Shown here: positions 1,987 through 59,474 of the stretch, piece by piece | How the letters are laid out: each line of letters begins with the position of its first letter | Numbering within the stretch: position 1 is the stretch's first letter | From: Minisyncoccia bacterium | Lineage (GTDB): Bacteria > Patescibacteriota > Minisyncoccia > JACQLN01 | Length of the DNA: 64,000 nucleotides | Direction: 5' to 3' | NCBI GenBank assembly: GCA_049274895.1 | Contig: JBASTM010000022.1 | Location: 2,424-66,423 of the forward strand | The notes under the pieces: model-generated | What the model was told of the DNA's origin: nothing | The model's database searches: none | Seen by the model: only the letters and a program-made list of their open reading frames with translations | Program-made: the position numbers and the translations under genes

Positions 1987-4371
1987 CTACTTACTTTTTC
2001 TCAATTCCGCACCCCATTTATCGGCCAGATCAGCTAGACTGACCGGACCGGCCAGTTTTAGGGGAACAACTGGCTGTGAAAGAACAACTGGCCGCGACGA
2101 GTCCTCGGGCTTTTCCTCATCACCCGAAAGAGAGTTGAAAACCTGGAACATCGGCATCGCGTTTTTATCGCCGGTATCGTTGCTCCAAGAATATCGCTCA
2201 CTTATCGCGCAGTAGTAAACTGCTCCGGTATTGATCCCATACCACTCGGTTGATCTATACGATACTTCTCCAACCTTCGCGATATAGCTATCAAGGAAGG
2301 AAAGAGAACTATCAACCTTAGTAAAGACAAGCCGGATCCAGCCCCGCTCCTTGGCTTCCTCTATTTTTCTTTCTTGGATTCCCCGGGCCTCGGGTAGGGA
2401 AACTTCCGTTTCGGCAAAGCCGATTAGATTTCCCTGAAAGAAAACTTCTTTCTTAGCTAAGGCACCCTGATGATCGGGCAGGACGGCCACAATCTCCGTC
2501 TCCTTGCCGAACTTGGCGAGATGGGGAACTAATTCGGGAAGCCATCCTAATTCCACCTTGCTGCAGCCCCGGGCGAACACCCGGCTTGTCTGGACTATCT
2601 CCGCGGCGACGAAGAATTCCGAACCAAGCCGGCTGAATAGCGCCGAGCCCGGGTGAATGTAGACGTCGGAACACGACGTTCTGACGACTCCGTTATACGA
2701 GTTTCGGCTGGAATGGCGGAACAGATTGTATACCAGCCCCGCCGCCACCGATTTCATGATTTCGTCTTCGGAACCGTTCTCCGAAATCTCCATGCCGTTT
2801 TTTTCCAGCATTTGTACGATTTGATCCCGGATCTTCCCGACTTCCTGGAGCGACTTCCCGTTAAGGAAGTTTTGGTAGCACCAGGCCGCCGAGAAACCCG
2901 AATCTTCGTACGCCTGCCAGACTTTGAGAAAGGTAAGTAAATCGGATCGCTTGTTTTTGAACTGTTCATGAGCAGCGTCCGCTTCCCATTCTTTTTCCCT
3001 CGGCCGCGAAAAAATACTCCGGACCGAAAGGAACGCGGCGATGGTGGCCGACGCACTCACGCAGAAGTGCTTTTCGGCCTCCAGCACCATCCGCGCGACG
3101 CGGGGCTCCAAAGGCAGGCGGGCCATGGATTTGCCAACGGCCGTGAGACCCTTCTTGCCCCGCTGGATTGCTCCGAGAGCGATCAGGGTTTCGTAGGCCT
3201 CATGGAAGGCCTCCTTTTCGGGAGGATCCACAAAGTCAAAACTCTCAATGTCGGCCAGGCCGATGTCTTCCATCGCCAGCACCACGCTTGCGAGGCCTAC
3301 CCGGCGGATCTCGGGTTCGGTGAATCGCGGCCTAGCGAGATTGAAATCCGCTTGAGTGTACATCCGGTAGCAGATTCCCGGGCGGGTTCGGCCCGCCCGT
3401 CCGGCGCGCTGATCGCAACCGGCCTGCGAGTGCTTGACCACGTCCAGACTTTGGATGCCGCTTTCCGGATGGAAACTCATCTGTTTGATGAGCCCGCTAT
3501 CCACCACGTATACCACGCCGTCCACCGTGATGGAGGTTTCGGCGATATTTGTCGCCACCACGACTTTGCGGCGGTTAGGGTAGTTTTCGAAAATCCTGTG
3601 CTGTTCCTCCGAAGAAATGTTGCCGTAGATCGGCAGAACAACCAGATCGGCGAGCCGGTATTCTTCTAAACCTTTTACGATTTTGTTGATATCGGCCTCA
3701 CCGGTCATAAAGACGAGAACGTCGCCCTCGCCGGCTGTTCGGTGGAGGATTTCCACTTTGCGAATGACATGCTCAACCATATCGTTCTCGTAGATTTCAT
3801 AATCCGACCATACCACTTCCACCGGAAACGTGCGGCCCGAAACGTTCACGACCGGCGCGTTCCAGAAGTAACCCGAAAACTTGTCGTGGTCAATGGTCGC
3901 CGAAGCAACCACCACCTTGAGATCTTGGCGACGCTTGAGAGCATCCTTGAGAAGGCCGAGAACAAAGTCTATGTTTTGACTCCGCTCGTGGGCCTCGTCC
4001 ACCATGATCACCGAGTATTGGTTGAGATCGGGATCAAGTTGGAGCTCCCGCAGAAGAATGCCGTCGGTCATGAACTTGATGAGGGTGTCATCGGCTGTGG
4101 TGTCGTCAAAACGAATCTGATAACCAACCTCCGAGCCCAGCTTTTTTCCAAACTGTTGGGCCACGAATTCGGCTACGGAGACCGCGGCGATGCGCCGTGG
4201 TTCGGTGATGCCGATCTTCTTGCCGTTGGCGAAACCGGCGGCAAGCATCAACGGCAACTGGGTGGTTTTACCCGACCCGGTTTCTCCGACCACAATCACC
4301 ACTTGATTGTTTTGGAGGGCCTCAATGATCTCTTTCCTTTTTGCCCAAATGGGCAGATCCATAAGATCCAT
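1987..4371 (-). CDS. hrpB: ATP-dependent DEAH-box helicase, HrpB/HrpA family
   Basis: GETGSGKTTQLP Walker A, DEAHER motif, helicase C region and HA2-like tail. The ~794 aa length fits HrpB. Confidence 0.85.
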   Translation of the reverse strand: MDLMDLPIWAKRKEIIEALQNNQVVIVVGETGSGKTTQLPLMLAAGFANGKKIGITEPRRIAAVSVAEFVAQQFGKKLGSEVGYQIRFDDTTADDTLIKFMTDGILLRELQLDPDLNQYSVIMVDEAHERSQNIDFVLGLLKDALKRRQDLKVVVASATIDHDKFSGYFWNAPVVNVSGRTFPVEVVWSDYEIYENDMVEHVIRKVEILHRTAGEGDVLVFMTGEADINKIVKGLEEYRLADLVVLPIYGNISSEEQHRIFENYPNRRKVVVATNIAETSITVDGVVYVVDSGLIKQMSFHPESGIQSLDVVKHSQAGCDQRAGRAGRTRPGICYRMYTQADFNLARPRFTEPEIRRVGLASVVLAMEDIGLADIESFDFVDPPEKEAFHEAYETLIALGAIQRGKKGLTAVGKSMARLPLEPRVARMVLEAEKHFCVSASATIAAFLSVRSIFSRPREKEWEADAAHEQFKNKRSDLLTFLKVWQAYEDSGFSAAWCYQNFLNGKSLQEVGKIRDQIVQMLEKNGMEISENGSEDEIMKSVAAGLVYNLFRHSSRNSYNGVVRTSCSDVYIHPGSALFSRLGSEFFVAAEIVQTSRVFARGCSKVELGWLPELVPHLAKFGKETEIVAVLPDHQGALAKKEVFFQGNLIGFAETEVSLPEARGIQERKIEEAKERGWIRLVFTKVDSSLSFLDSYIAKVGEVSYRSTEWYGINTGAVYYCAISERYSWSNDTGDKNAMPMFQVFNSLSGDEEKPEDSSRPVVLSQPVVPLKLAGPVSLADLADKWGAELRKSK

Positions 4372-4574
4372 CAGATTCTCCCACGAGCGGACATAAGATC
4401 ACCTTATCCACTCGCGCGCACTGCGTGCGCTTCCTCAACGCCAAGAGGCGAGGAGGCATGTGGGGCAAGGCCGCCCGCGGCTTAGTGGATAAGTGAGGTA
4501 AAAAACTTAGTTTGTTGTCAACGAACTGCTAAATGTATACTATCATAGTATAAACTGTTGTGTCAATATGCCAG

Positions 4575-4603
4575 TTGACACGGCAATATCTTTGATATAT
4601 AAT
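4575..4603 (+). promoter_or_regulatory. sigma70-type promoter (TTGACA-17-TATAAT) upstream of the DEAD-box helicase
   Basis: Exact consensus -35 TTGACA (4575-4580), 17-nt spacer, exact -10 TATAAT (4598-4603). Leaves a ~135-nt leader. Confidence 0.6.
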
Positions 4604-4742
4604 GGATAAATAGTCTAAATCTCATAGGTTTTTGGCGTTTTGAGGGCATTAACCTCCATTTCGGGGGTTATCACCTAAAAATATAAGCTTTAAGGGCTTT
4701 TGTCTGGAAACTCGTGAGCAGGGATAAAACCCTTAAAGTTAT

Positions 4743-5942
<1,200 letters not shown>

Positions 5943-5969
5943 AAAGAGAAATAAAAACATCATTCCGAA

Positions 5970-5992
5970 CTGCCTGCCTGCCGGCAGGCAGG
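5970..5992. repeat. GC-rich palindrome CTGCCTGCCTGCCGGCAGGCAGG (copy 1 of 3)
   Basis: Perfect inverted repeat. Related copies at 43164-43200 and 47608-47630. Confidence 0.7.
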
Positions 5993-6031
5993 CCCCATGG
6001 AGAAGACGGCATCTACAATAGAGAGGCCTCC

Positions 6032-7027
6032 ATGCAGGCAGTGAGGAGTGATGTTTTTAGAATCATGTTAATAGACGACGTAAAAATAAAAATAAAAGCC
6101 GGGGACGGCGGCCGGGGCGCCGTCGCTTTTAATAAAAACTTAATGAGCTTGGGGCCGGTGGGCGGCGACGGCGGCGACGGCGGCAGTATTTATTTTGAAG
6201 GCGTTTCCAACTTAAACGCCTTGGCCCAATTCAGATACAAAAAAGACATAAAAGTAAAAAACGGCGAAAACGGCAAGCCGCAATTCAACGACGGCGCCGA
6301 CACCGAGGATTTGGTTTTGAAAGTTCCGGTGGGCACGGTTATAAAAAATCTGGACACCAAAGAAACGCGCGAGATCACCAAGATAGGCGAGCGGATATTG
6401 GCCGCGCGGGGCGGACAGGGCGGCAAAGGCAATTTTAAGTTTAGATCTTCGTTAAACACCACGCCGACCCAGTTTCAACACGGCCGCGCGGGCGAATCTT
6501 TCAGAATACGGCTGGAACTTAAGCTTATAGCCGACGTGGGTTTTATCGGGCTGCCTAACGCCGGAAAGTCCAGTCTATTAAACGAGCTGACGCGCGCCCA
6601 AAGCAAGGTAGCCAATTACCCCTTCACCACGTTGGAACCGAACCTGGGGGCGTATTACGAGCTTATTTTAGCCGATATCCCTGGTATAATTGAGGGCGCT
6701 TCGGCCGGCCGGGGATTGGGCCTAAAGTTTTTACGCCACGTGGAGCGCACCAAGATTTTGTTCCACTTGATTTCGGCCGAATCGGAAAATCCGGCCCGGG
6801 ATTACAAAATCATCAGAAACGAACTTAAAACTTACGGCGCGGGCCTGATTAAAAAACAGGAATACCTCTTTTTAACCAAAAACGATCTCGCTACTTCGGC
6901 GGAGTTAAAAAAGAAACTGGCCGTCCTAAAAAAGATAAACAAGAACGCCTCGACTGTTTCCATCCACGACTGGGACAGCTTAGAAAAAGTAAAAAAGATT
7001 CTAAATAGGATTCAAGAAAAGAAATAA
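6032..7027 (+). CDS. obg: GTPase Obg/CgtA
   Basis: Obg fold glycine repeats (GDGGRGAVAF, GGDGGDGG), G-domain GLPNAGKSSLL, PFTTLEPNLG, DIPGIIEGA. The likely true start is MLIDDVKIKIKAGDGG at 6065. Confidence 0.9.
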   Translation: MQAVRSDVFRIMLIDDVKIKIKAGDGGRGAVAFNKNLMSLGPVGGDGGDGGSIYFEGVSNLNALAQFRYKKDIKVKNGENGKPQFNDGADTEDLVLKVPVGTVIKNLDTKETREITKIGERILAARGGQGGKGNFKFRSSLNTTPTQFQHGRAGESFRIRLELKLIADVGFIGLPNAGKSSLLNELTRAQSKVANYPFTTLEPNLGAYYELILADIPGIIEGASAGRGLGLKFLRHVERTKILFHLISAESENPARDYKIIRNELKTYGAGLIKKQEYLFLTKNDLATSAELKKKLAVLKKINKNASTVSIHDWDSLEKVKKILNRIQEKK

Positions 7028-7030
7028 AAA

Positions 7031-7055
7031 AGAGACTGCCGAAGCAGTCTCTTTT
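7031..7055. terminator. bidirectional rho-independent terminator between obg and the island
   Basis: AAAAAGAGACTGC-CGAA-GCAGTCTCTTTT, a perfect 9-bp stem flanked by A-run and T-run. Confidence 0.75.
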
Positions 7056-7092
7056 GAATTGTCTCCTTTATGATTGGAGGAAGTTGAAAGAA

Positions 7093-7893
7093 CTAGTTGC
7101 CGAATCCGCCGGCGGCCGCCTGGCTGAAGCTGACCCCTCCTTGGCTGGCCCGCACCGCGGACTGGCTGAAGACGTTGAACGCCCGTCGAAGCTCCGAAGG
7201 CGAGTTGCCCGGCGTGAGGATCCAGCGATCCTCAATACCCATCTCCTGGAACACTTTCCGGAAATCGGTGCGCCCGCCGTCGTCGATGCCCATACCGGCA
7301 ATGATGTGGTTCTCGGTGCGGAGCATGTCGCGAACCAACGCCTGAACACTCGAGGGATTCTGGCGTCTCGAGTGCTCATCGGCGCCATCCGTGATGATGA
7401 GGGTCACCGTCCGGCACGGCACGCCGTTGTCCTCGAAGGACTGGGCCTTGGCGAGCACGGTGCCCAACAGCACGACCGACTGGTCGTAGAGCGGTGTTCC
7501 TTGGTCGGGATCATAGTTGTGAGCATCCATCCGCACCGCCTGATCGAGGGGCACGAAGGGATACAGCACGAACCCGTTCAGATACCGGCAGTGGGCGAGA
7601 ATGCCCTCCTTCTGCTTGGAACCGCCGAGCGCGTCGAGGACGGTGTTGTGGCCATCCCTGACATTCTGGGCGTTGCCGGCGAACCTGATGGAACCCGAAT
7701 CGTCGGGCATCATGGTGACCAGTGTGACTTCGCTGGCTTGGACATCGTCGACGTCGATGCCGATTCCCATCTGGATCTGCTCGCCGATGTCGTTGATGTT
7801 GATGAGGCCCGCCGTCTGGGACGACAGCGTTCCCTCGTTCTGAGCGTGGCTCAGCAACGCGGCCACGCTCTGGTTGGTACCAGACTTGCTCAT
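7093..7893 (-). CDS. von Willebrand factor A (vWA) domain protein with MIDAS motif, TerY-like
   Basis: MIDAS DxSxS (MPDDSGS) and downstream ITDG. AAGGAG RBS 8 nt upstream. Last gene of a GC-rich four-gene minus-strand operon. Confidence 0.7.
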   Translation of the reverse strand: MSKSGTNQSVAALLSHAQNEGTLSSQTAGLININDIGEQIQMGIGIDVDDVQASEVTLVTMMPDDSGSIRFAGNAQNVRDGHNTVLDALGGSKQKEGILAHCRYLNGFVLYPFVPLDQAVRMDAHNYDPDQGTPLYDQSVVLLGTVLAKAQSFEDNGVPCRTVTLIITDGADEHSRRQNPSSVQALVRDMLRTENHIIAGMGIDDGGRTDFRKVFQEMGIEDRWILTPGNSPSELRRAFNVFSQSAVRASQGGVSFSQAAAGGFGN

Positions 7894-7941
7894 GATATGA
7901 ACTCCTTCTGGGTTGAGAGTTGGAACTTGGAACCGTGAGGT

Positions 7942-9024
7942 CTAGGCGGCGACAGGTATACCCGGCCAGGACTCAATCGAATCGGTGGACTTAACCACGT
8001 TCATACCGGCATCGGCGTAACGCCAGAGAGCTTCCTCGGCCTGCGGCGTGAAATCGGCGAAGAAGCCGCCGCTCGGGTTGGGAACGGCCACAGCCGAGGT
8101 GCAGTCCTCCAGCACATACACCTTCTTGGCCAAGGCAGAATCCTGTACAAGGATCTCGGCCAAGAAATGATCGATGGACGACTTGACGCAGTGGCTCGCG
8201 GCCTGACCCGCGATGACCACGGCGTCGGCATCCATCAACACCTTGATGAACCGGGTGTTCTTGGACGCCAGAACTTGACCATCGAAACGGAGGAGAACTT
8301 CCGGGCTGAAGATGGAGTAGTTCTCCGTGAGCGGATTGCCGCCCTTCACTTCGGCCTCGGATTGCATCTGCCGGACATATGCATGAAACATCCGGGCTTC
8401 CTGGACGACGCCGACCAGCGTGTGACCGTCGGAACCGAGCATGCAATGCTCGGGCCAGATGTAGAGCTGGTAGCGCCCGCCTTCCGCGAGCTTCTTGCAG
8501 TAGAACTGCGCCTGCTTCCGGAGCCAGCCGTAGTTGCCGTTGCAGAGAAATCCGGCGACCGCCGGGTTCGGCGCTGCTTGGCCGGCCGGCTGGCCCAGGC
8601 GGAGAATCGTGAGATCCTCCGCGAGCATATCGTGGGGCTGGAGGGGGTTGTCATCCTCATCAACCCAAAACGAGGGAAAGAAGATCTGGAACGGGAAGTG
8701 CGTGTCCATGGTCGGGGTGATGTGCGTCAGAACGCCGAGGTTGCGGTAGATGAACTCCGCGGTTCGGCGGCTGTCGTCGATTGCTCCCGTTCCGCTGCGC
8801 CCGCCGACGTAGAGCGTGCCTTCGGGGAAGCAGAAGTCCTTCTGCTCGTCGATGAGCAGGAGGTGAATCTTGAAACGATCGCTCGACGCGGCCTTGATGC
8901 TGAACTGCCGCCGGTAATCCTGCGCCGAGGTGAACAAGGCGCGGAGGTTGGGCGAGTAGCTCCACTTCGTGGCATTGCCGGGATCGTAGAAGCTGGGTGA
9001 CTGCGAATTGCGAGCGCGGGCCAT
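7942..9024 (-). CDS. pncA: nicotinamidase / isochorismatase-family cysteine hydrolase (PncA-like, extended form)
   Basis: LLLIDEQKDFC (Asp), WPEHCMLGSDGH (metal-binding His) and VVIAGQAASHCVKSS (Cys nucleophile) align with PncA motifs. N-terminal and internal extensions make it 360 aa. AAAGGAG RBS upstream. Confidence 0.75.
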   Translation of the reverse strand: MARARNSQSPSFYDPGNATKWSYSPNLRALFTSAQDYRRQFSIKAASSDRFKIHLLLIDEQKDFCFPEGTLYVGGRSGTGAIDDSRRTAEFIYRNLGVLTHITPTMDTHFPFQIFFPSFWVDEDDNPLQPHDMLAEDLTILRLGQPAGQAAPNPAVAGFLCNGNYGWLRKQAQFYCKKLAEGGRYQLYIWPEHCMLGSDGHTLVGVVQEARMFHAYVRQMQSEAEVKGGNPLTENYSIFSPEVLLRFDGQVLASKNTRFIKVLMDADAVVIAGQAASHCVKSSIDHFLAEILVQDSALAKKVYVLEDCTSAVAVPNPSGGFFADFTPQAEEALWRYADAGMNVVKSTDSIESWPGIPVAA

Positions 9025-9108
9025 TGCTGGCTCCTTTCGGTGATGAACTGATAAACTGCGGCGTTATTCTAAATCAGCCGGGACGATCCCGGCATGTTCA
9101 CTTCTTAA

Positions 9109-10998
9109 TTACTTGATGGTCAGGCGCCATATCTCATGCGATCCGACCACCATAAGACCGATCTTGTCTAGAAACAAGTGCCGGCCGGTATGCACAAACC
9201 GGGCGGAATCGGGGAACTCTTTCTCAACGACAAGATTGTCACCCGAAGCTTTTACCCGAACTATCCCATCGTCAGTCGCGACAAGAAGAAAGTCGCCCAC
9301 AGCGCACTTGCCGCGAAGTGTTCCCAGCCAAGATCCGTCACCAGCTTCGGCTTCGGCTCGCGCCTCAACCGTGCCGTCGTAACGGATAAGAAAACAGGAG
9401 TTTATGGTCTTGCCACTGACACGGTTTGAAACGATGAACCAGATTCTGTCCTTGCCAAAAAGACAAGTGGAGTCAACAAGTTGGCCATTGAACGGCCTTA
9501 AAGTCAGACTGTCGTTGATTCCTTTTTTCTCGGTGTTGAAGATGAAACATTGGCTTAGGCCGCCGGCGCGGTAGAAACCGAAGCCGACGCGCGACCCCGT
9601 CCAAAACAAAGTCTGTTGAGGCAACACATCGCCAATCGTTTCCTGGAAATCAGCGCCTAAATCGCTCGTGCGCTTAATCTGCCCGTTCTGCGTCCAGAAG
9701 ATATGATGTTCATTGGCGTCAACTACCGGCAACAACCCAAGGGTGTCGACAGTAAGCTTATGAGACGTCTGTTCTTGGGCGACGAACACAAGAGCGCGGT
9801 TGCCGCTTGCGATCACTGTGCCCAATCCTCGGATGCGAAAACGGGCGTGGGGATCAAGAGCGCCGGTTATAACCACCGAATCATCTTCGCGGCGGTATTC
9901 GCCGTTATGATGATAGAGCCAGCGTAAGTTTCCCCCTTGGGAAACAGCGAAAACAATTTTCCCTTCTGTCCGAAAAATTCTTTCACCTGAAACAGTTCCC
10001 GTGGACACGGCTGTCACCGCCTGTGGGATTATGGCTTTGCATTTGGGGCAAACACCGCGGGCGTGGAGCGTGCCACAAGTGCCGCAGGTCGTCCAACAAA
10101 TATCTTCAAGAAGCTGCCGCGGAATTAGCATCCGCTTGTCTCTCTCGAAAATATCGTGGAAGCACTGCAACAGATTGTCCGGCAGAACACTAAAGTGCCG
10201 GGATGGCTTCGGATAGCGCACTTCCGGATGAAATACCGTGATGCGGTGGAGCGGCCGAGCGCCATGGCTTATCTTTTGGGATGCTTTCTTTGGCTTGTAG
10301 ACTCCGCCGTATGGTCCGCCGGAAAGACAGAGCAGGGTTTGCATCAGCATAACCGCGAACGCGTACCAATCCGACATTTCGTTGTGCGGTTTTGAAAGAA
10401 GAAGTTTATTTTCGCTCGGATCACAGAGCAGTGGATCCACGAATCTCTCCGTGAAAACTCTGCACAAGAATCTGCCAAACTGGCAGCTGTCCGCGTCAAT
10501 TACATACGCCTCCGCTTTATCCACCAGAACATTAAGATCGTTGAAATCTCCTAGGACAACTCTGTTGGTATGGACCTGTTGTACTGTCGCATGGAGATCC
10601 TGAAAAATCTTCACAACAGTATCGTCCGATATTCCACCTTGCCTGAAGTTGACTTCCCCATACCGCAGAAGAACTTCCGCTCCTCTTTTGAACGGCATGG
10701 TGTAACCGACAACGCTTCCATCTTGCGCATAGGCAAGCTCCTGTGGAGCCACTATACGATGCGGCAGTCCGGAAGGGAATGATGGCAACTTTTGTTGGTG
10801 CTCAGCTATGCGCTTCCGGGCCCCTTCTTGCTCGTGCGGTAAACCTTGGTAGTCGGGGTGATCCGGCGGTTTGAAAATCTTTAGCGCCAGACCGCCGCCG
10901 ACATCATAGATGTCGGCTTCTCCTCCTTTGCCGATTGACTTGGCGGGATCCGGCCGAAATTTCTTTTTGGCCTGGCCAATCAGAATTTGGGTAGGCAT
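9109..10998 (-). CDS. atypical Ser/Thr protein kinase-like protein with zinc ribbon and C-terminal beta-propeller-like region
   Basis: Gly-rich loop IGKGGEADIY, Lys in ALKIFK, catalytic-loop-like VLGDFNDLNVLV and DFG-like YVIDADSCQFG. Then CWTTCGTCGT...CPKCK zinc ribbon and ~300 aa of repetitive beta-rich sequence. Start lies 2 bp after the PP2C stop. Confidence 0.65.
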   Translation of the reverse strand: MPTQILIGQAKKKFRPDPAKSIGKGGEADIYDVGGGLALKIFKPPDHPDYQGLPHEQEGARKRIAEHQQKLPSFPSGLPHRIVAPQELAYAQDGSVVGYTMPFKRGAEVLLRYGEVNFRQGGISDDTVVKIFQDLHATVQQVHTNRVVLGDFNDLNVLVDKAEAYVIDADSCQFGRFLCRVFTERFVDPLLCDPSENKLLLSKPHNEMSDWYAFAVMLMQTLLCLSGGPYGGVYKPKKASQKISHGARPLHRITVFHPEVRYPKPSRHFSVLPDNLLQCFHDIFERDKRMLIPRQLLEDICWTTCGTCGTLHARGVCPKCKAIIPQAVTAVSTGTVSGERIFRTEGKIVFAVSQGGNLRWLYHHNGEYRREDDSVVITGALDPHARFRIRGLGTVIASGNRALVFVAQEQTSHKLTVDTLGLLPVVDANEHHIFWTQNGQIKRTSDLGADFQETIGDVLPQQTLFWTGSRVGFGFYRAGGLSQCFIFNTEKKGINDSLTLRPFNGQLVDSTCLFGKDRIWFIVSNRVSGKTINSCFLIRYDGTVEARAEAEAGDGSWLGTLRGKCAVGDFLLVATDDGIVRVKASGDNLVVEKEFPDSARFVHTGRHLFLDKIGLMVVGSHEIWRLTIK

Positions 10999-11000
10999 GG

Positions 11001-11867
11001 CTACACCCTCTCTTCCTTTTGAGGATCTCGCCTGATTACAATCAAAGTCGTATCATCAGGCAACAAACCTCCAACAACCCGCGCCTTGGTAGCGCCAACA
11101 ACTTCGGCACCTTCTTTGTTGATAAGCGCCAGTCGGCGACGAACAGCATCGTTGTTGGTAAAGTAATGGTCATCGGACCAGAACTGGCCGATAGCGCCAA
11201 TGATATTGTCGCGATGCGGCAGTTTTGTGTCCGCCAATCCAATCAAATCAAGAACACCATCGCAGCCCAAAAGCAAATCCTCAAGCTCGCTCGTTGGGAT
11301 GACCCGGTTCACTTGAATCTTAAGAAGTTCCGGTTGGTTAGCCGTCAAAGATGAACCGGTAAGGTTGTAAGCAAGATATGGCGGTGTGTTGTTGGGAAAT
11401 GGTCCGAGTTGGAACATTTCTCCGTTTACCACAAAAACTCCATCCCCAAGGGAAAACAAAAAAGTTTCCCAGGGGGTGATAAGCGCGCCGACTATCGTGA
11501 ACAGAAAGTAGTCGTTGATCGTCTTGGAAAAACTTTCTCCCATGGACGATGCCAAAACGGCGATCTGGCTGAGTACGAGAATTTTTACCCGTTCCCAATC
11601 AATCCTGGCTTCTTTATCGGATTGAAGAAAAGCTTGCTCAACATACCGTTCTCCGGCCTCGGCCACGAACTGGACCACCAGCCGCGCCGAAATTTGGGCG
11701 CCTACTTCACTATGAGCGCCACTACCGCAACCGTCACAAACAACCGCCACCAGGCAGTTGTCCGTGCGACGCCAATGAAAAGCATCCTGATTGTTGGTCC
11801 AACCGGGTTGGCCCGGCTTGGTATGCTCCGTACCCGGTACAGAGCCACCGGCAATCTGAAAATCCAT
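11001..11867 (-). CDS. PP2C-family Ser/Thr protein phosphatase
   Basis: PP2C metal-binding motifs VVCDGCGSGAHSEVGA, GDGVFVV, GCDGVLD, DDTTLIVI. Start set at MDFQIAGG because a perfect AAGGAGG RBS lies 6 nt upstream. Confidence 0.75.
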   Translation of the reverse strand: MDFQIAGGSVPGTEHTKPGQPGWTNNQDAFHWRRTDNCLVAVVCDGCGSGAHSEVGAQISARLVVQFVAEAGERYVEQAFLQSDKEARIDWERVKILVLSQIAVLASSMGESFSKTINDYFLFTIVGALITPWETFLFSLGDGVFVVNGEMFQLGPFPNNTPPYLAYNLTGSSLTANQPELLKIQVNRVIPTSELEDLLLGCDGVLDLIGLADTKLPHRDNIIGAIGQFWSDDHYFTNNDAVRRRLALINKEGAEVVGATKARVVGGLLPDDTTLIVIRRDPQKEERV

Positions 11868-11905
11868 TAGCTGCCTCCTTTTCGTCAAAAGACTCGTTTT
11901 TAAGC

Positions 11906-11958
11906 GTAATTACTATGATTTGTTAAAGATCCTTCATAGTAACGCTTGGTTACTATGA
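11906..11958. promoter_or_regulatory. palindromic operator TCATAGTAAC-N5-GTTACTATGA plus an upstream half-site, between the divergent island operon and pncB
   Basis: Perfect 10-bp inverted repeat at 11934-11958 with 5-bp spacer. An additional GTAATTACTATGAT half-site sits at 11906-11919. Confidence 0.5.
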
Positions 11959-11984
11959 TCTAAAAAAAGCAGTTTTTGTTTGTG

Positions 11985-12029
11985 TTGTCAAGCCCAGATA
12001 TTGACAAAATAGTATTAATTAAATACTAT
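11985..12029 (+). promoter_or_regulatory. pncB promoter (TTGACA-17-TACTAT) overlapped by palindrome TTGTCAA-N9-TTGACAA
   Basis: -35 TTGACA at 12001-12006, spacer 17, -10 TACTAT at 12024-12029. The -35 is the right arm of inverted repeat TTGTCAA(11985-11991)/TTGACAA(12001-12007). Confidence 0.5.
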
Positions 12030-12076
12030 AATATATAGAGTTTTTGTACCTTAAATACACGAAAAAGGAGAACGGA

Positions 12077-13375
12077 ATGGATCCTAAGGGTTTTGCCGAA
12101 CGTCTGCGCGCAAGTTTGGCTGAGTTCAGCCCGCCAGTGCGGTCGCTTTTGGACGTGGATTTCTATAAGTTCACCATGGGACAGTTGATCCACTATTATT
12201 TTCCGTACACCGAGGTAGCTTTTCGGCTGATAGTCCGGGACGCCAAAATACCCTTGACCGAGTTTGTGGGCGAAGAAGATTTAAGGCGGTGCCTGGACTA
12301 TGCCATGGACCTTCGCTTTTCCGTGGACGAGCTTGACTTTCTTAGGAAAACCGACGTCAGCGGGAAAAGCATGTTCCGTGACCGTTATCTAGATTTTTTA
12401 CGCGACTTCCGCCTGCCGCCGTACCAGCTGAAGATGACCGACGGAACGATTGAGCTTGTTTTTCCGGGCTGCTGGCCCAAAGTATCCCCATGGGAAACCA
12501 TAGCTCTCGCTATTGTGAGCGAGCTTTATTACAGAAGGGTGTTGCGCCACACGCCCATTGAGACACTGAAAAAGATATATGAGCGAGCCGAGGCACGGCT
12601 TCGGAACAAACTTGATAAGCTGGCGACTCATCCGTATATTGCATTTGCCGATTTCGGCCAGAGGCGACGGCACAGTTTTTTGTGGCAAGAACATGTGCTG
12701 GAATTGTGTCGTGATACGTTGGGACAACAATTCACCGGAACATCCAACACCTACCTGGCCTGGCGTCATAACCTGCCGGCCATAGGCACCAACGCGCACG
12801 AGTTGCCGATGGTGATGACGGCTCTCGCCAGCTCCGACGAGAAGATGCGCCAAGCGCAATATCATGTGCTGGAACTCTGGCAGACGATCTACGGCCAGGA
12901 TTTGCGGATTTTTCTGCCGGACACTTACGGTTCGGAACAGTTTTTCGCCGGAGCGCCGGAATGGCTGAAAGACTGGCGTGGCCAACGCCAAGATTCCGGC
13001 GATCCAAAAATAGAAGGTGAAAGGTACGCGAGCTGGCTCCGGGAACGGGGCGTTGATCCAGCCGAACGTCTGACCATCTTTTCGGACGGATTGGATGTTG
13101 ACCCGATGATTGAAATTGGTTCGCATTTTGAAGGCAAACACCAGCACGCTTACGGTTGGGGCACGCTGCTTACCAACGATTTCACCGGCTGCGATCCCGC
13201 CAACCCAAACCTGCGGCCTTTTTCCATGGTCTGCAAAGTCGTGGCGGCCAACGGCCGGCCCTGCGTTAAACTATCCAACAATCCCGCCAAGGCCACCGGG
13301 CCGGCGGCAGAGGTCCAGCGCTACCTGCGCGTTTTTGGAAACAAAGGCCGCGCGGACCAGCCGGTTCTGGTCTAA
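12077..13375 (+). CDS. pncB: nicotinate phosphoribosyltransferase
   Basis: Signature LLDVDFYKFTMGQ plus a conserved C-terminal region. AGGAG RBS 7 nt before ATG at 12077. The longer ORF from 12044 is likely spurious. Confidence 0.85.
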   Translation: MDPKGFAERLRASLAEFSPPVRSLLDVDFYKFTMGQLIHYYFPYTEVAFRLIVRDAKIPLTEFVGEEDLRRCLDYAMDLRFSVDELDFLRKTDVSGKSMFRDRYLDFLRDFRLPPYQLKMTDGTIELVFPGCWPKVSPWETIALAIVSELYYRRVLRHTPIETLKKIYERAEARLRNKLDKLATHPYIAFADFGQRRRHSFLWQEHVLELCRDTLGQQFTGTSNTYLAWRHNLPAIGTNAHELPMVMTALASSDEKMRQAQYHVLELWQTIYGQDLRIFLPDTYGSEQFFAGAPEWLKDWRGQRQDSGDPKIEGERYASWLRERGVDPAERLTIFSDGLDVDPMIEIGSHFEGKHQHAYGWGTLLTNDFTGCDPANPNLRPFSMVCKVVAANGRPCVKLSNNPAKATGPAAEVQRYLRVFGNKGRADQPVLV

Positions 13376-13468
13376 AACAGTTCGACAAGTCGTTCGACCC
13401 TGAGGGTCTCAGGCCTTCGGTTCTGAGAAACCTCAGTCTCGATGAACCCGATGGGCTCATCATAAACG

Positions 13469-13505
13469 GCGAGAGCGGTTGCCAAACAGCCGCTCTCTTT
13501 TATTT
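13469..13505. terminator. bidirectional rho-independent terminator between pncB and dnaX
   Basis: GAGAGCGG-N12-CCGCTCTC stem followed by TTTTATTTTT. Preceded by further hairpins (CCTGAGGGTCTCAGG). Confidence 0.7.
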
Positions 13506-30771: not shown

Positions 30772-31511
30772 TGTTGAACATCCGATGTTCAACAATCATA
30801 TATGTTTAGACACCCCGCTATAACCACTACAGGAGAGTATCTACACATCTATAATCGTGGCAATGATAGACAAACAATATTCCACGATGAGCGTGATTGG
30901 ATAAGATTTTTGTTCCTAATCTTACATTTGCAATCCAAGGTGGTTTTTGAGAACATTGGTCGTCATGTCAGTTACTTTGTTAAACATCGGATGTTCAACA
31001 CTGAAGAAAGCATATCAGATATTTTACGAACTCGATTAGTTGAGCTTACTACATTTACTCTTATGCCCAACCACTTTCATTTGGTGATAGTCGGATTGAA
31101 AGATAGAGGAGTATCAGAATACATGCGCCGTGTACAAGATGCTTACACTAAATACTACAATACCAAACACAAAAGAACTGGACACCTGTTACAAGGACCC
31201 TATCAAGCTGTACACATAAAAAACAACAACCAACTCTTACACCTATCGGCTTATATACACAAAAACTCTAGGGAACTGCCGACTTGGAAAAATAAAGAAC
31301 ATTTATATCCATGGTCCAGTTATCAAGACTATCTAAAAAACCGCTGGGGAGAGCTTCTAAACAGTAGTATAATCTCAGAACAATTTAACAAACCAGAAGA
31401 TTATAAAATCTTCGTGAAAAATAGTAGTGCCAAAGAATCACTACCAGATAATTGTCTAATTGATTATTTTGATTAAACGTCGAATGTTGAACATCCGATG
31501 TTCAACATTCG
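30772..31511 (+). mobile_element. RAYT/IS200-like Y1 transposase unit flanked by REP-like palindromes
   Basis: The transposase ORF is bounded by near-identical palindromes TGTTGAACATCCGATGTTCAACA at 30772-30794 and 31481-31511. Inserted between mraY and a convergent gene. Confidence 0.65.
30802..31476 (+). CDS. REP-associated tyrosine transposase (RAYT) / IS200-like Y1 HUH transposase
   Basis: YLHIYNRGNDRQTIFHDERDWIRFLFLIL ... TLMPNHFHLVI (HUH motif) ... conserved Tyr region (GPYQAVHI). Confidence 0.75.
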   Translation: MFRHPAITTTGEYLHIYNRGNDRQTIFHDERDWIRFLFLILHLQSKVVFENIGRHVSYFVKHRMFNTEESISDILRTRLVELTTFTLMPNHFHLVIVGLKDRGVSEYMRRVQDAYTKYYNTKHKRTGHLLQGPYQAVHIKNNNQLLHLSAYIHKNSRELPTWKNKEHLYPWSSYQDYLKNRWGELLNSSIISEQFNKPEDYKIFVKNSSAKESLPDNCLIDYFD

Positions 31512-42241: not shown

Positions 42242-42835
42242 TTATTTTGTAAATCTAAAAGATGAGAGAATTGATTCAAATAAATTTGTATATTCACTCC
42301 ATTTAGAATCAAGAGCTGTTGTGGCTAATACATAAGCAACATCATTATTATTAATAGTAATTAGATGCCTATCGCGCATTAGCATATTATTTTGCATAAA
42401 AGTAAGGTTAACAATCAATCCTTCTTTCCCGTTAATCGAAACTTTTTCATCAGGATAGAATTTAGCATCTTGTTTATATTTCAACAGTATGCTTTTATCA
42501 AGAGCCACATATTCTTCAAGATTATTTACGCCGAGATTTTTTATCGGTCGAGTTAAAAAATTAATGTTTGCAAAAAATGATTGACTTTGGTCATAATCAG
42601 CTACAGGATTCAAAAATACTACAACCGTTCCTAGTTTACCACTCTCATCTACTGTCCAACCTTGTGGCTGTTTGATTTCAAATCCAAATTTGTCATTTCG
42701 ATACATTCCACCAGAATCAGATTTTATTACAGGTTTTACACCCCACTTATTATTAGTCATATCAAAATAGAAGTAGCCCACAACTGTGATAATAACTAAA
42801 ATGATGGCAGATATAATTACAGATTTTTTGCTCAT
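42242..42835 (-). CDS. hypothetical membrane-anchored/secreted protein
   Basis: N-terminal TM helix. AT-rich codon usage that differs from the neighbours. Lies between the two direct repeats. Confidence 0.5.
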   Translation of the reverse strand: MSKKSVIISAIILVIITVVGYFYFDMTNNKWGVKPVIKSDSGGMYRNDKFGFEIKQPQGWTVDESGKLGTVVVFLNPVADYDQSQSFFANINFLTRPIKNLGVNNLEEYVALDKSILLKYKQDAKFYPDEKVSINGKEGLIVNLTFMQNNMLMRDRHLITINNNDVAYVLATTALDSKWSEYTNLFESILSSFRFTK

Positions 42836-42983
42836 AGAATTTATAAAAATTATTAGTTAATTATTTCGACTTAATAAAATTGATAAAAAATTTCTTTTGC
42901 CCTTCATTGATAAATCCTTTTATTTTTTGCCCAAAAAGCCCTTTCAAATCCTAGCCGAGCGGCGCGTTTCGCGCCGCGAGACA

Positions 42984-58780: not shown

Positions 58781-59326
58781 CTACTTGCTGGCGGGCTTGT
58801 CCGCCGGAGAGGCGGGAACGAGCCAGCGCCAGAACTCGCCAATCACGTCCCCGGCCCAGTAGAAGTCGGAGACGCCGCAGGAAAAGACATCCGGGAAGCG
58901 GACGTAGCCGCGCGGAAAGACCCACGAAGGATCCGCGAACCCGACGGGGTCGTTGCCGTCGTAGCGCGGGAAAGCGGCTTTGAACGCTTCCCGCCACTGG
59001 CCCTCCGGAACCGGGCCGTACTGCGCCAGCTTCTCCCGCACCTCGTCCAGGTTGCGGTAGTAGCCGACGCGCACCAACTTGAATCGCCGCGTCTGGACGC
59101 CGGACAGCTTCTGGCCGGTGAACTGCAACATCTCCGGCTCGCTGTAGCTGTAGCCGTCGTTGCGCACCATCTCGATCGGGTCGGCCTCGGGCGCGCTGAA
59201 GTTGAACGTCAGTTCAAACTCATCGCCGTCGGCCGGGTACTGCGGGCGGGCACGGTCGAATACGTCATCCTGATGCCGAGCGAAATGCCCTAACTGCTCG
59301 TCCGTCGGGACAGCTTTCGCCGTCAT
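58781..59326 (-). CDS. hypothetical protein (GC-rich compositional outlier)
   Basis: AGGAGG RBS before MTAKAVPTDEQLGHF. The C-terminus is Trp/Phe-rich (FYWAGDVIGEFWRWLVP). No family recognised. Confidence 0.45.
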   Translation of the reverse strand: MTAKAVPTDEQLGHFARHQDDVFDRARPQYPADGDEFELTFNFSAPEADPIEMVRNDGYSYSEPEMLQFTGQKLSGVQTRRFKLVRVGYYRNLDEVREKLAQYGPVPEGQWREAFKAAFPRYDGNDPVGFADPSWVFPRGYVRFPDVFSCGVSDFYWAGDVIGEFWRWLVPASPADKPASK

Positions 59327-59474
59327 GACAAAGCCTCCTATGGTTTTGGCAACCAAGCATCCGCCGCTTTGGCGGATCCCAGATAAGCCGGTTTTAAGGT
59401 ACAATACAAGTATAGCAAATCATTGACTTTCTATCAAATGACTTGTTCTAGGAAATAACACTTAATGGGAAAAT

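Follow-up and report, generated by a model that had tools for sequence, protein, structure and literature searches.

We describe a four-gene cassette in a 64,000-nucleotide stretch of DNA from a Minisyncoccia bacterium (assembly GCA_049274895.1, contig JBASTM010000022.1, positions 2,424 to 66,423), hereafter referred to as the window. The cassette encodes a PP2C-type phosphatase, an atypical Ser/Thr kinase, a long-form nicotinamidase and a stand-alone vWA protein, and it lies opposite a divergent pncB, the gene for nicotinate phosphoribosyltransferase. We consider it somewhat more probable than otherwise that the cassette as a whole constitutes an ADP-ribose-inducible, phosphorylation-gated nicotinamidase that feeds PncB in the salvage of nicotinamide adenine dinucleotide (NAD+). 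Control of bacterial NAD+ salvage is thought to be mainly transcriptional, through NrtR, NiaR and NadR. That a nicotinamidase is strictly associated with a dedicated kinase, phosphatase and vWA protein, in 273 species or more by the count seeded with the kinase, points to a layer of post-translational control that has so far gone unrecognised. The cassette is widespread, conserved and apparently undescribed: no nicotinamidase fixed to a kinase/PP2C/vWA triad was found in the searchable literature, which covers few subscription journals and may therefore miss an earlier mention. The genes concerned are as follows.

11867-11001, minus strand: PP2C-type phosphatase, first gene of the operon (Pfam PF13672)
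10998-9109, minus strand: Ser/Thr kinase with zinc ribbon and 7-bladed propeller, 2 bp from the stop of the PP2C gene
9024-7942, minus strand: long-form nicotinamidase, 360 amino acids (aa), isochorismatase fold
7893-7093, minus strand: stand-alone vWA protein, 266 aa, with a complete metal-ion-dependent adhesion site (MIDAS)
12077-13375, plus strand: pncB, nicotinate phosphoribosyltransferase, divergent from the cassette

The map of open reading frames (ORFs) and the protein profiles agree with a sequence-only reading of this DNA, which had proposed four tightly coupled minus-strand genes with a 2-bp gap between PP2C and kinase and a divergent pncB. The minus-strand order is PP2C, kinase, nicotinamidase and vWA, with gaps of 2, 84 and 48 bp. 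The phosphatase probably starts at ATG 11867 (MDFQIAGG), with AAGGAGG ahead of it, while its longest ORF runs from TTG 11888; PncB probably starts at ATG 12077 (MDPKGF), while its longest ORF runs from TTG 12044. Both ATGs were preferred over the upstream TTGs because of their ribosome-binding sites and because of a related locus, L007, in a Parcubacteria metagenome-assembled genome (MAG). The identity of PncB is supported by NCBIfam models NF003704 (412.7 bits, cutoff 379) and TIGR01514 (276.6 bits, cutoff 269.55) and by Pfam matches to NAPRTase and NAPRTase_N.

A scan seeded with the kinase, with one genome per species, recovered 273 species, and the best 80 loci were analysed. About 70 of the 80 preserve the order PP2C, kinase, nicotinamidase, vWA; among the others, most are ended by a contig edge or lack a nicotinamidase or vWA match in the flank that was read. 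Look-ups seeded with the nicotinamidase landed in a full cassette in four out of four cases, so that the link between long-form enzyme and triad holds from either side. Clustered at 90%, the kinase family gives more than 1,500 matches; at 50% identity (E<=1e-30) it forms 533 clusters. Its members are mostly 600-650 aa long among the 150 matches listed. Going by record titles, about 30 of the best 80 loci belong to Patescibacteria, 23 to cyanobacteria and 6 to myxobacteria; 6 are in MAGs labelled Gammaproteobacteria and one is in an archaeal MAG, besides single genomes of Acidobacteriota, Planctomycetota, Gemmatimonadota, Desulfobacterota and others. The cassette is thus prominent in the genome-reduced Patescibacteria, where each retained gene is informative, as well as in cyanobacteria and myxobacteria. 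It is spread patchily across phyla at about 50% identity (mean pairwise identity of the cassette proteins, 42-59%), and such high identity between phyla suggests strong purifying selection on these proteins.

All genes that recur around the cassette are related to NAD+. Neighbouring ORFs were clustered and the cluster representatives scanned for families, with counts taken over 82 loci (the 80 loci of the scan and two from look-ups). NrtR, recognised by its Nudix and NrtR_WHD domains, lies within 10 kb in 46 of the 82, mostly directly upstream of PP2C, and pncB lies within the same distance in 21. A gene for glutamine-dependent NadE is found near the cassette in 15 loci, an NMNAT-NAD kinase fusion in 14 and NMNAT in 4, followed by ADP-ribosylglycohydrolase (12/82), Nudix (8/82) and prs (7/82). 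Gene orders such as pncB-prs-nadE-nrtR-nudix-PP2C-kinase-nicotinamidase-vWA (L104) and nrtR-PP2C-kinase-nicotinamidase-vWA-pncB (L103) illustrate this clustering, and several cyanobacteria (L001, L045, L055, L056, L066, L070, L075, L079) carry an ADP-ribosylglycohydrolase gene between PP2C and kinase. Canonical short PncA was not among the ten most recurrent neighbour families examined, which fits the inference that the long-form enzyme supplies the PncA step next to pncB. The conserved neighbourhoods strongly back the coupling of phosphorylation signalling to NAD+ salvage that the sequence-only reading had suggested.

That reading had also placed the genes in the TerY-P triad, a vWA protein (TerY) with a PP2C phosphatase and a Ser/Thr kinase, reportedly defined in 2012 by Anantharaman, Iyer and Aravind; Gao et al. 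are said to have found it anti-phage in 2020. On the present evidence the cassette more probably belongs to an NAD+ recycling regulon than to a fresh TerY-P defence island.

Consistent with such a regulon, the 209-bp control region between cassette and pncB contains the following elements.

11936-11956: operator 1, a perfect 21-bp palindrome, ATAGTAACGCTTGGTTACTAT, inside a 25-bp palindrome at 11934-11958
11910-11918: extra half-site, TTACTATGA, near operator 1
12009-12029: operator 2, a perfect 21-bp palindrome, ATAGTATTAATTAAATACTAT, over the pncB promoter spacer and -10

Both operators have the form ATAGTA-N9-TACTAT. No other perfect match to it occurs in the 64 kb, and with up to two mismatches the window holds 6 matches against 0.87 expected. 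Two perfect palindromes in one common control region bear out the earlier proposal that cassette and pncB share operators. The pncB promoter consists of TTGACA (12001-12006) and TACTAT (12024-12029) at a spacing of 17 nt. The palindromes have the same outer arms, ATAGT/ACTAT, as the NrtR operators found upstream of cassette orthologues, where WTAGTGT-N7-ACACTAW precedes PP2C in 21 of 74 loci, compared with about 0.01 per locus in shuffled sequences. The published core of the NrtR operator is GT-N7-AC (PMC2330246). By analogy with the orthologous loci, the regulator that acts on the window operators may be NrtR-like.

All four domain assignments made from the letters hold by profile or fold evidence. 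The PDB, searched by sequence with single proteins as well as profiles, yielded marginal matches only, so that fold searches and hhalign were needed. The nicotinamidase differs from PncA by an N-terminal extension of about 50 aa and an insertion of about 75 aa, and Pfam PF00857 reaches 18 bits on it, under the cutoff of 27. A profile built from 22 family members aligned by hhalign with E. coli PncA at a probability of 96.2% (E 2.3e-9, 121 columns), matching up WPxHC of the metal site, KG-NPL-YS around the lysine and the catalytic Cys motif. Weak motif-level PDB matches were found to M. tuberculosis PncA (3pl1) and to the Leishmania nicotinamidase (3r2j). In the 22-sequence alignment the triad D59/K227/C279 and the metal ligands D107/H109/H193 are invariant, the roles of D59, D107 and H109 being ones that we take over from published PncA structures. 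A 100%-identical protein from a Minisyncoccia MAG is labelled 'nicotinamidase' at NCBI, and no record came back when contigs were queried for exactly the window protein. These matches place the 360-aa protein among the PncA/isochorismatase-fold nicotinamidases, presumably with deamidase activity.

Variants of this enzyme were seen in some loci. The nicotinamidase ORF is 580-604 aa long in L013 (11893-13635), L048, L064 (11916-13730), L072 and L088 (11867-13645), with about 240 extra residues before the C-terminal catalytic motifs and no Pfam match in that part, which may represent an inserted or fused segment or else an intein. In L046 (14044-15096), L050 (7859-8884) and L074 (13946-14986), a second, more divergent long-form paralogue lies directly downstream of the vWA gene (phmmer scores 164-189).

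The three other proteins retain the residues expected of working components. The kinase domain covers aa 1 to about 300 and has K40, D168/D170 and an atypical catalytic loop, G-D151-F-N-D-L-N156; a zinc ribbon (CxxC...CPxC) follows at aa 305-320 and a 7-bladed beta-propeller at aa ~330-629. Fold searches bear out both the kinase and the propeller, with K40, D151, N156 and D168/D170 kept and invariant. The phosphatase matches PF13672 at 65.3 bits (cutoff 24, E 7.3e-18), and across 69 sequences the conservation of its metal-binding NQD, DG, GDG, DG and DD motifs is 90% or higher. From these residues, kinase and PP2C both look active and neither looks like a pseudo-enzyme, an outcome that would have counted against the sequence-only reading. 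A small-molecule kinase, as weak NCBIfam matches to Kdo kinase and LanL and a JGI label 'Bud32' might suggest, was disfavoured, since protein kinases lead the fold matches and the partner enzyme is a PP2C phosphatase.

The vWA protein matched no Pfam or PADLOC family at E<=0.01 and no PDB sequence. Its MIDAS residues (D64-x-S66-x-S68, T133 and D169) are invariant in a 27-sequence alignment; the N-terminal 55 aa or so are disordered and contain an invariant S24, and the conserved, Ser-rich C-terminal tail ends in GGFG. An AlphaFold2 model reached a predicted local distance difference test (pLDDT) score of 82, and the top 50 PDB matches of the model in Foldseek are almost all vWA or integrin I domains (E 2e-7 to 2e-5; best about 2e-7 at probability 1.00). 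Model and matches confirm the vWA (Rossmann-like) fold, and the alignment shows a complete MIDAS.

From these elements we propose how the cassette may operate. Consumption of NAD+ would release ADP-ribose and nicotinamide; an NrtR-type repressor would leave the shared palindromes, and the cassette and the divergent pncB would be transcribed together, a derepression step that we infer from the orthologous loci and the published ADP-ribose response of NrtR. The long-form nicotinamidase would convert nicotinamide to nicotinate, and PncB would convert nicotinate to nicotinate mononucleotide for the Preiss-Handler route, the identities of both enzymes coming from sequence and profile evidence. Kinase, PP2C and vWA protein would form a reversible phosphorylation switch dedicated to the nicotinamidase, with the propeller as a sensor or docking domain of the kinase. 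The vWA protein may bind a partner through its MIDAS metal site and offers invariant serines (S24 and S243/S245/S250) as candidate phospho-acceptors, the nicotinamidase insertion (residues ~120-190) being another predicted acceptor, and PP2C would reset the switch. A salvage role of the nicotinamidase is likely, whereas for a triad acting directly on the nicotinamidase we see the chances as evenly balanced.

To judge whether the cassette is a recent arrival, we considered its edges and its base composition. The block is bounded by the following features.

6032-7027, plus strand: obg, flanking the vWA end of the block
7028-7055: hairpin terminator AAAAGAGACTGC-CGAA-GCAGTCTCTTTT, 12-bp stem, where the obg and vWA genes converge
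13471-13497, plus strand: intrinsic terminator after pncB, 11-bp stem with 7 G-C pairs and a TTTTATTTTT tail
15002-13500, minus strand: dnaX, flanking the pncB end of the block

Both hairpins that had been said to bound the block, after obg and before dnaX, were found. The first, flanked by an A-run and, at its opposite side, a T-run, could therefore terminate in both directions, and the second ends 3 nt from the dnaX stop. The block had been described as much richer in GC than its surroundings over the whole of 7.0-13.5 kb. This applies to the nicotinamidase and vWA genes at 7-9 kb (GC 0.59-0.61) and not to the rest of the block (0.49-0.52 at 9-13.5 kb; window mean 0.475), and other parts of the window reach 0.55-0.57. 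The GC content at third codon positions (GC3) is 0.83 in the vWA gene and 0.81 in the nicotinamidase gene, compared with 0.56 in the kinase, 0.53 in PP2C and 0.63 in pncB (window mean 0.53, standard deviation 0.10). The same asymmetry, with GC3 of nicotinamidase and vWA above that of PP2C and kinase, was found in 64 of 70 loci from many phyla, for example in L007 (0.51/0.52 for PP2C and kinase, 0.74/0.77 for nicotinamidase and vWA) and in its most extreme form in L047 (0.95/0.94 vs 0.55/0.56). This recurrence marks a lasting property of the two genes and not a scar of transfer; our guess at its cause is codon selection on the two more abundant components.

The suggestion of a GC-rich genomic island at 7.0-13.5 kb, acquired recently, finds some support in the GC3 of the vWA and nicotinamidase genes, about three standard deviations over the window mean, and in the mobility of the cassette over long time scales. 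We regard it as highly improbable. Relatives with the same genes at the same locus had been named as a check on the island idea, and L007, whose kinase is 74% identical, has the order dnaX-pncB<>PP2C-kinase-nicotinamidase-vWA-obg exactly as in the window, and shows the GC3 asymmetry as well. Kinase, PP2C and pncB have host-like GC3, all four genes share their nearest relatives (L006, L007 and L016), and the search for block boundaries found no integrase, tRNA or direct repeat, the edges being ordinary terminators. By these comparisons the cassette is old in this lineage; its horizontal mobility over long time scales is clear as well. An anti-phage system of the TerY-P kind could draw on the shared architecture of vWA, PP2C and Ser/Thr kinase, on the patchy distribution over phyla with clear horizontal transfer, on the inserted ADP-ribosylglycohydrolase of cyanobacterial cassettes and on the prediction that NrtR-regulated, ADP-ribose-centred vWA operons are conflict systems (PMC9503650). 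The triad would then sense infection and the nicotinamidase would be the effector; removal of nicotinamide could starve the phage NAD+ reconstitution pathways NARP1 and NARP2 while the host salvages nicotinate via PncB. We nevertheless consider this unlikely. PADLOC, run on the four proteins and PncB, returned nothing above noise, TerY-P models included, the sole matches at E<=0.01 being two PD-T4-6 kinase ones below threshold (E 0.003-0.009); Pfam gave no vWA/TerY match for the vWA protein, and the 64-kb window contains no ter (tellurite-resistance) or defence-island genes. Membership in TerY-P was rejected on these grounds. A defence role, as first suggested, is not favoured either: the recurrent neighbours are NAD-metabolic rather than defence genes, the proteins are unusually conserved instead of diversifying, the locus is a stable housekeeping one in two lineages of the candidate phyla radiation, and the cassette is carried by phages themselves.

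This last point leads to a module of phages or mobile elements for counter-defence, which would rebuild NAD+ by the Preiss-Handler route after attack by host NADases (Sir2, TIR, SEFIR), the cellular copies being domesticated or prophage-derived. In IMG/VR, 15 contigs (L087-L101, 42-545 kb) have a relative of the kinase and 14 of them carry the whole cassette, several together with pncB and a short nadE and none with NrtR. Their flanks contain HNH and GIY-YIG homing endonucleases, Rnl1 (a T4-type RNA ligase), RtcB, a Dda-like helicase and ribonucleotide reductase, content such as huge phages typically have, although the call of viral status relied on 20-kb flanks only. Clusters of pncB-nadD-nadE are on record from jumbo phages (PMC11662467). 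On the other hand, nothing phage-like adjoins the window cassette, whose obg/dnaX locus is common to a diverged relative; most cellular copies are under NrtR control alongside host salvage genes, and no full-length kinase homologue was present in 50,697 GenBank phage records, all of which makes counter-defence as the primary function rather improbable. Alternatively, the vWA protein might serve as a metal-delivery or assembly chaperone of the nicotinamidase, with kinase and PP2C tuning maturation and not acting as a signalling switch. Such a role would suit the complete MIDAS, the invariant metal ligands of the nicotinamidase and the elevated GC3 that sets this pair apart in 64 of 70 loci, and parts of PMC6941528 describe metallochaperones as needed for PncA activity. 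No MoxR-type ATPase recurs in the neighbourhoods, however, and the analogy with vWA partners of metalloenzyme maturation is one of general knowledge, with the interaction itself supposed; we think a chaperone improbable as well.

The phosphorylation-gated nicotinamidase feeding PncB, which we prefer to these alternatives, has several observations weighing against it. No nrtR gene was found in the 64-kb window with a profile made from the 46 neighbouring NrtR proteins, and the window operators lack the inner GT/AC core of NrtR sites. Across loci, pncB is near the cassette (within 10 kb) in only about a quarter. The pairwise distances of the nicotinamidase correlate poorly with those of the other three genes (rho 0.18-0.29), which suggests that the enzyme gene may be exchanged between cassettes, and a switch between triad and nicotinamidase is suggested only by strict co-occurrence and intact catalytic motifs. 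Carriage by phages, and transfer of the cassette into a host that reads TGA as sense (L002, see below), would fit a conflict-related role as well. A defence or counter-defence role for the cassette is thus possible. More speculatively, and with a good deal of doubt, the cassette may be a phosphorylation-gated 'nicotinamide valve' used by both sides in the phage-host fight over NAD+. If so, ADP-ribose and a kinase-sensed signal would divert nicotinamide to a host-only Preiss-Handler route and away from phage rebuilding, the cassette of huge phages with pncB and nadE would form a fourth, deamidated pathway of NAD+ reconstitution, and Ser/Thr phosphorylation would here, for the first time, be seen to control an enzyme of bacterial NAD+ salvage directly.

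The transfer into L002 is a separate observation. This cassette (7137-11791) lies on a 1.7-Mb contig (JGI 3300046163 Ga0494222_0001, GC 0.31) whose host reads TGA as sense, as does the host of L003: with TGA taken as sense, the number of stop-free codons in long stretches rises from 2,112 to 7,202. In-frame TGA abounds in the flanking genes. The cassette genes have no in-frame TGA in about 1,500 codons and end in TAA or TAG, so the TGA-free cassette can be read as a natural marker of recent transfer into a recoded lineage.

Comparison with known systems further delimits the cassette. It resembles TerY-P in that a stand-alone MIDAS-vWA protein is encoded beside PP2C and a Ser/Thr kinase. It differs in having no PADLOC or Pfam model match and no ter genes nearby, in its fourth, obligatory gene for the nicotinamidase, in the zinc ribbon and 7-bladed propeller of its kinase, and in its context, which is the NrtR NAD salvage regulon and not defence islands. 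The cassette fails the sequence tests for TerY-P, yet it may work like such a triad. The case indicates that vWA, PP2C and kinase can serve together as an all-purpose switch joined to a metabolic enzyme, so that a 'TerY-P defence' label given from architecture alone is unsafe.

A kinase with a zinc ribbon plus a domain rich in beta-strands, a PP2C phosphatase and a stand-alone vWA protein also occur together in the GAP1-N2 GTPase systems of actinobacteria (Kaur et al., eLife 2020, PMC7159879). Compared by description, that module goes with GAP1-N2 GTPases and is said to occur in actinobacteria only (PMC7159879), whereas the present cassette has no GTPase, has a fixed nicotinamidase partner and is hosted by Patescibacteria, cyanobacteria, myxobacteria and others. 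NrtR regulons are known from operons of the type nrtR-pncA-pncB(-nadD-nadE) (Rodionov et al. 2008, PMC2330246). The window shares with them a nicotinamidase and PncB under one palindromic 21-bp operator, and related loci add an adjacent NrtR, GT-N7-AC operators and clustering with nadE, nadD/nadM, prs and Nudix genes. The differences are that the cassette nicotinamidase is a 350-aa long form instead of a PncA of about 200 aa, that it always comes with the kinase/PP2C/vWA triad, and that the window has neither an nrtR gene nor the inner GT/AC core in its operators. An earlier name for these genes was sought in nrtX/nrtY (Rodionov 2008, PMC2330246) and rejected, because that is a two-gene unit and nothing equates the two.

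Iyer et al. 2022 (PMC9503650) predicted that systems centred on ADP-ribosylglycohydrolase (ARG), which are regulated by NrtR or WYL proteins and contain vWA chaperones, act against ADP-ribosylation by viruses. The likeness lies in the NrtR-type, ADP-ribose-sensing repressor, the vWA protein and, in cyanobacterial cassettes, the ADP-ribosylglycohydrolase. Those systems combine the glycohydrolase with rhodanese, calcineurin, HD or HAD phosphatases and nuclease effectors, and PP2C, protein kinase and nicotinamidase are not mentioned in PMC9503650. Finally, phages are known to reconstitute NAD+ by the pathways NARP1-3 and, in jumbo phages, by Preiss-Handler clusters (PMC13464706, PMC11662467). The phage-like contigs with cassette, pncB and nadE would likewise rebuild NAD+, starting from nicotinamide, although none of the described routes (Adps/Namat, Nampt/Nmnat, PnuC/NadR, pncB-nadD-nadE) consists of a nicotinamidase and a triad. 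Such carriage by apparent huge phages ties the cassette to competition between phage and host for NAD+.

Individual loci depart from the common arrangement. In Cystobacter ferrugineus (L086, MPIN01000012) the cassette is rearranged to NrtR-PP2C-kinase-vWA, followed, on the opposite strand, by an ORF of 325 aa and a SitI3 immunity gene, after which come the nicotinamidase and an ORF of 280 aa. In L004 and L018, two LSDAT_prok (SLOG) genes follow the vWA gene.

Outside the block, the window itself is uneven in composition. An IS200-like Y1 transposase at 30778-31473 (plus strand, GC 0.36) and a PsbP-domain protein at 42245-42856 (minus strand, GC 0.30, GC3 0.21) show that composition is heterogeneous elsewhere too. 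At 58784-59419 (minus strand) lies an ORF of 212 aa with GC 0.63 and GC3 0.81, which equals the vWA and nicotinamidase genes in GC richness; examined with a view to expression-linked codon bias as the source of high GC3, it gave no Pfam match. The ORF at 1987-4371 (minus strand, 794 aa), which starts with a GETGSGKT P-loop and by eye resembles a DEAH/HrpA-type helicase, has a GC content of 0.54 (GC3 0.65), so that above-mean GC is not unique to the flagged block.

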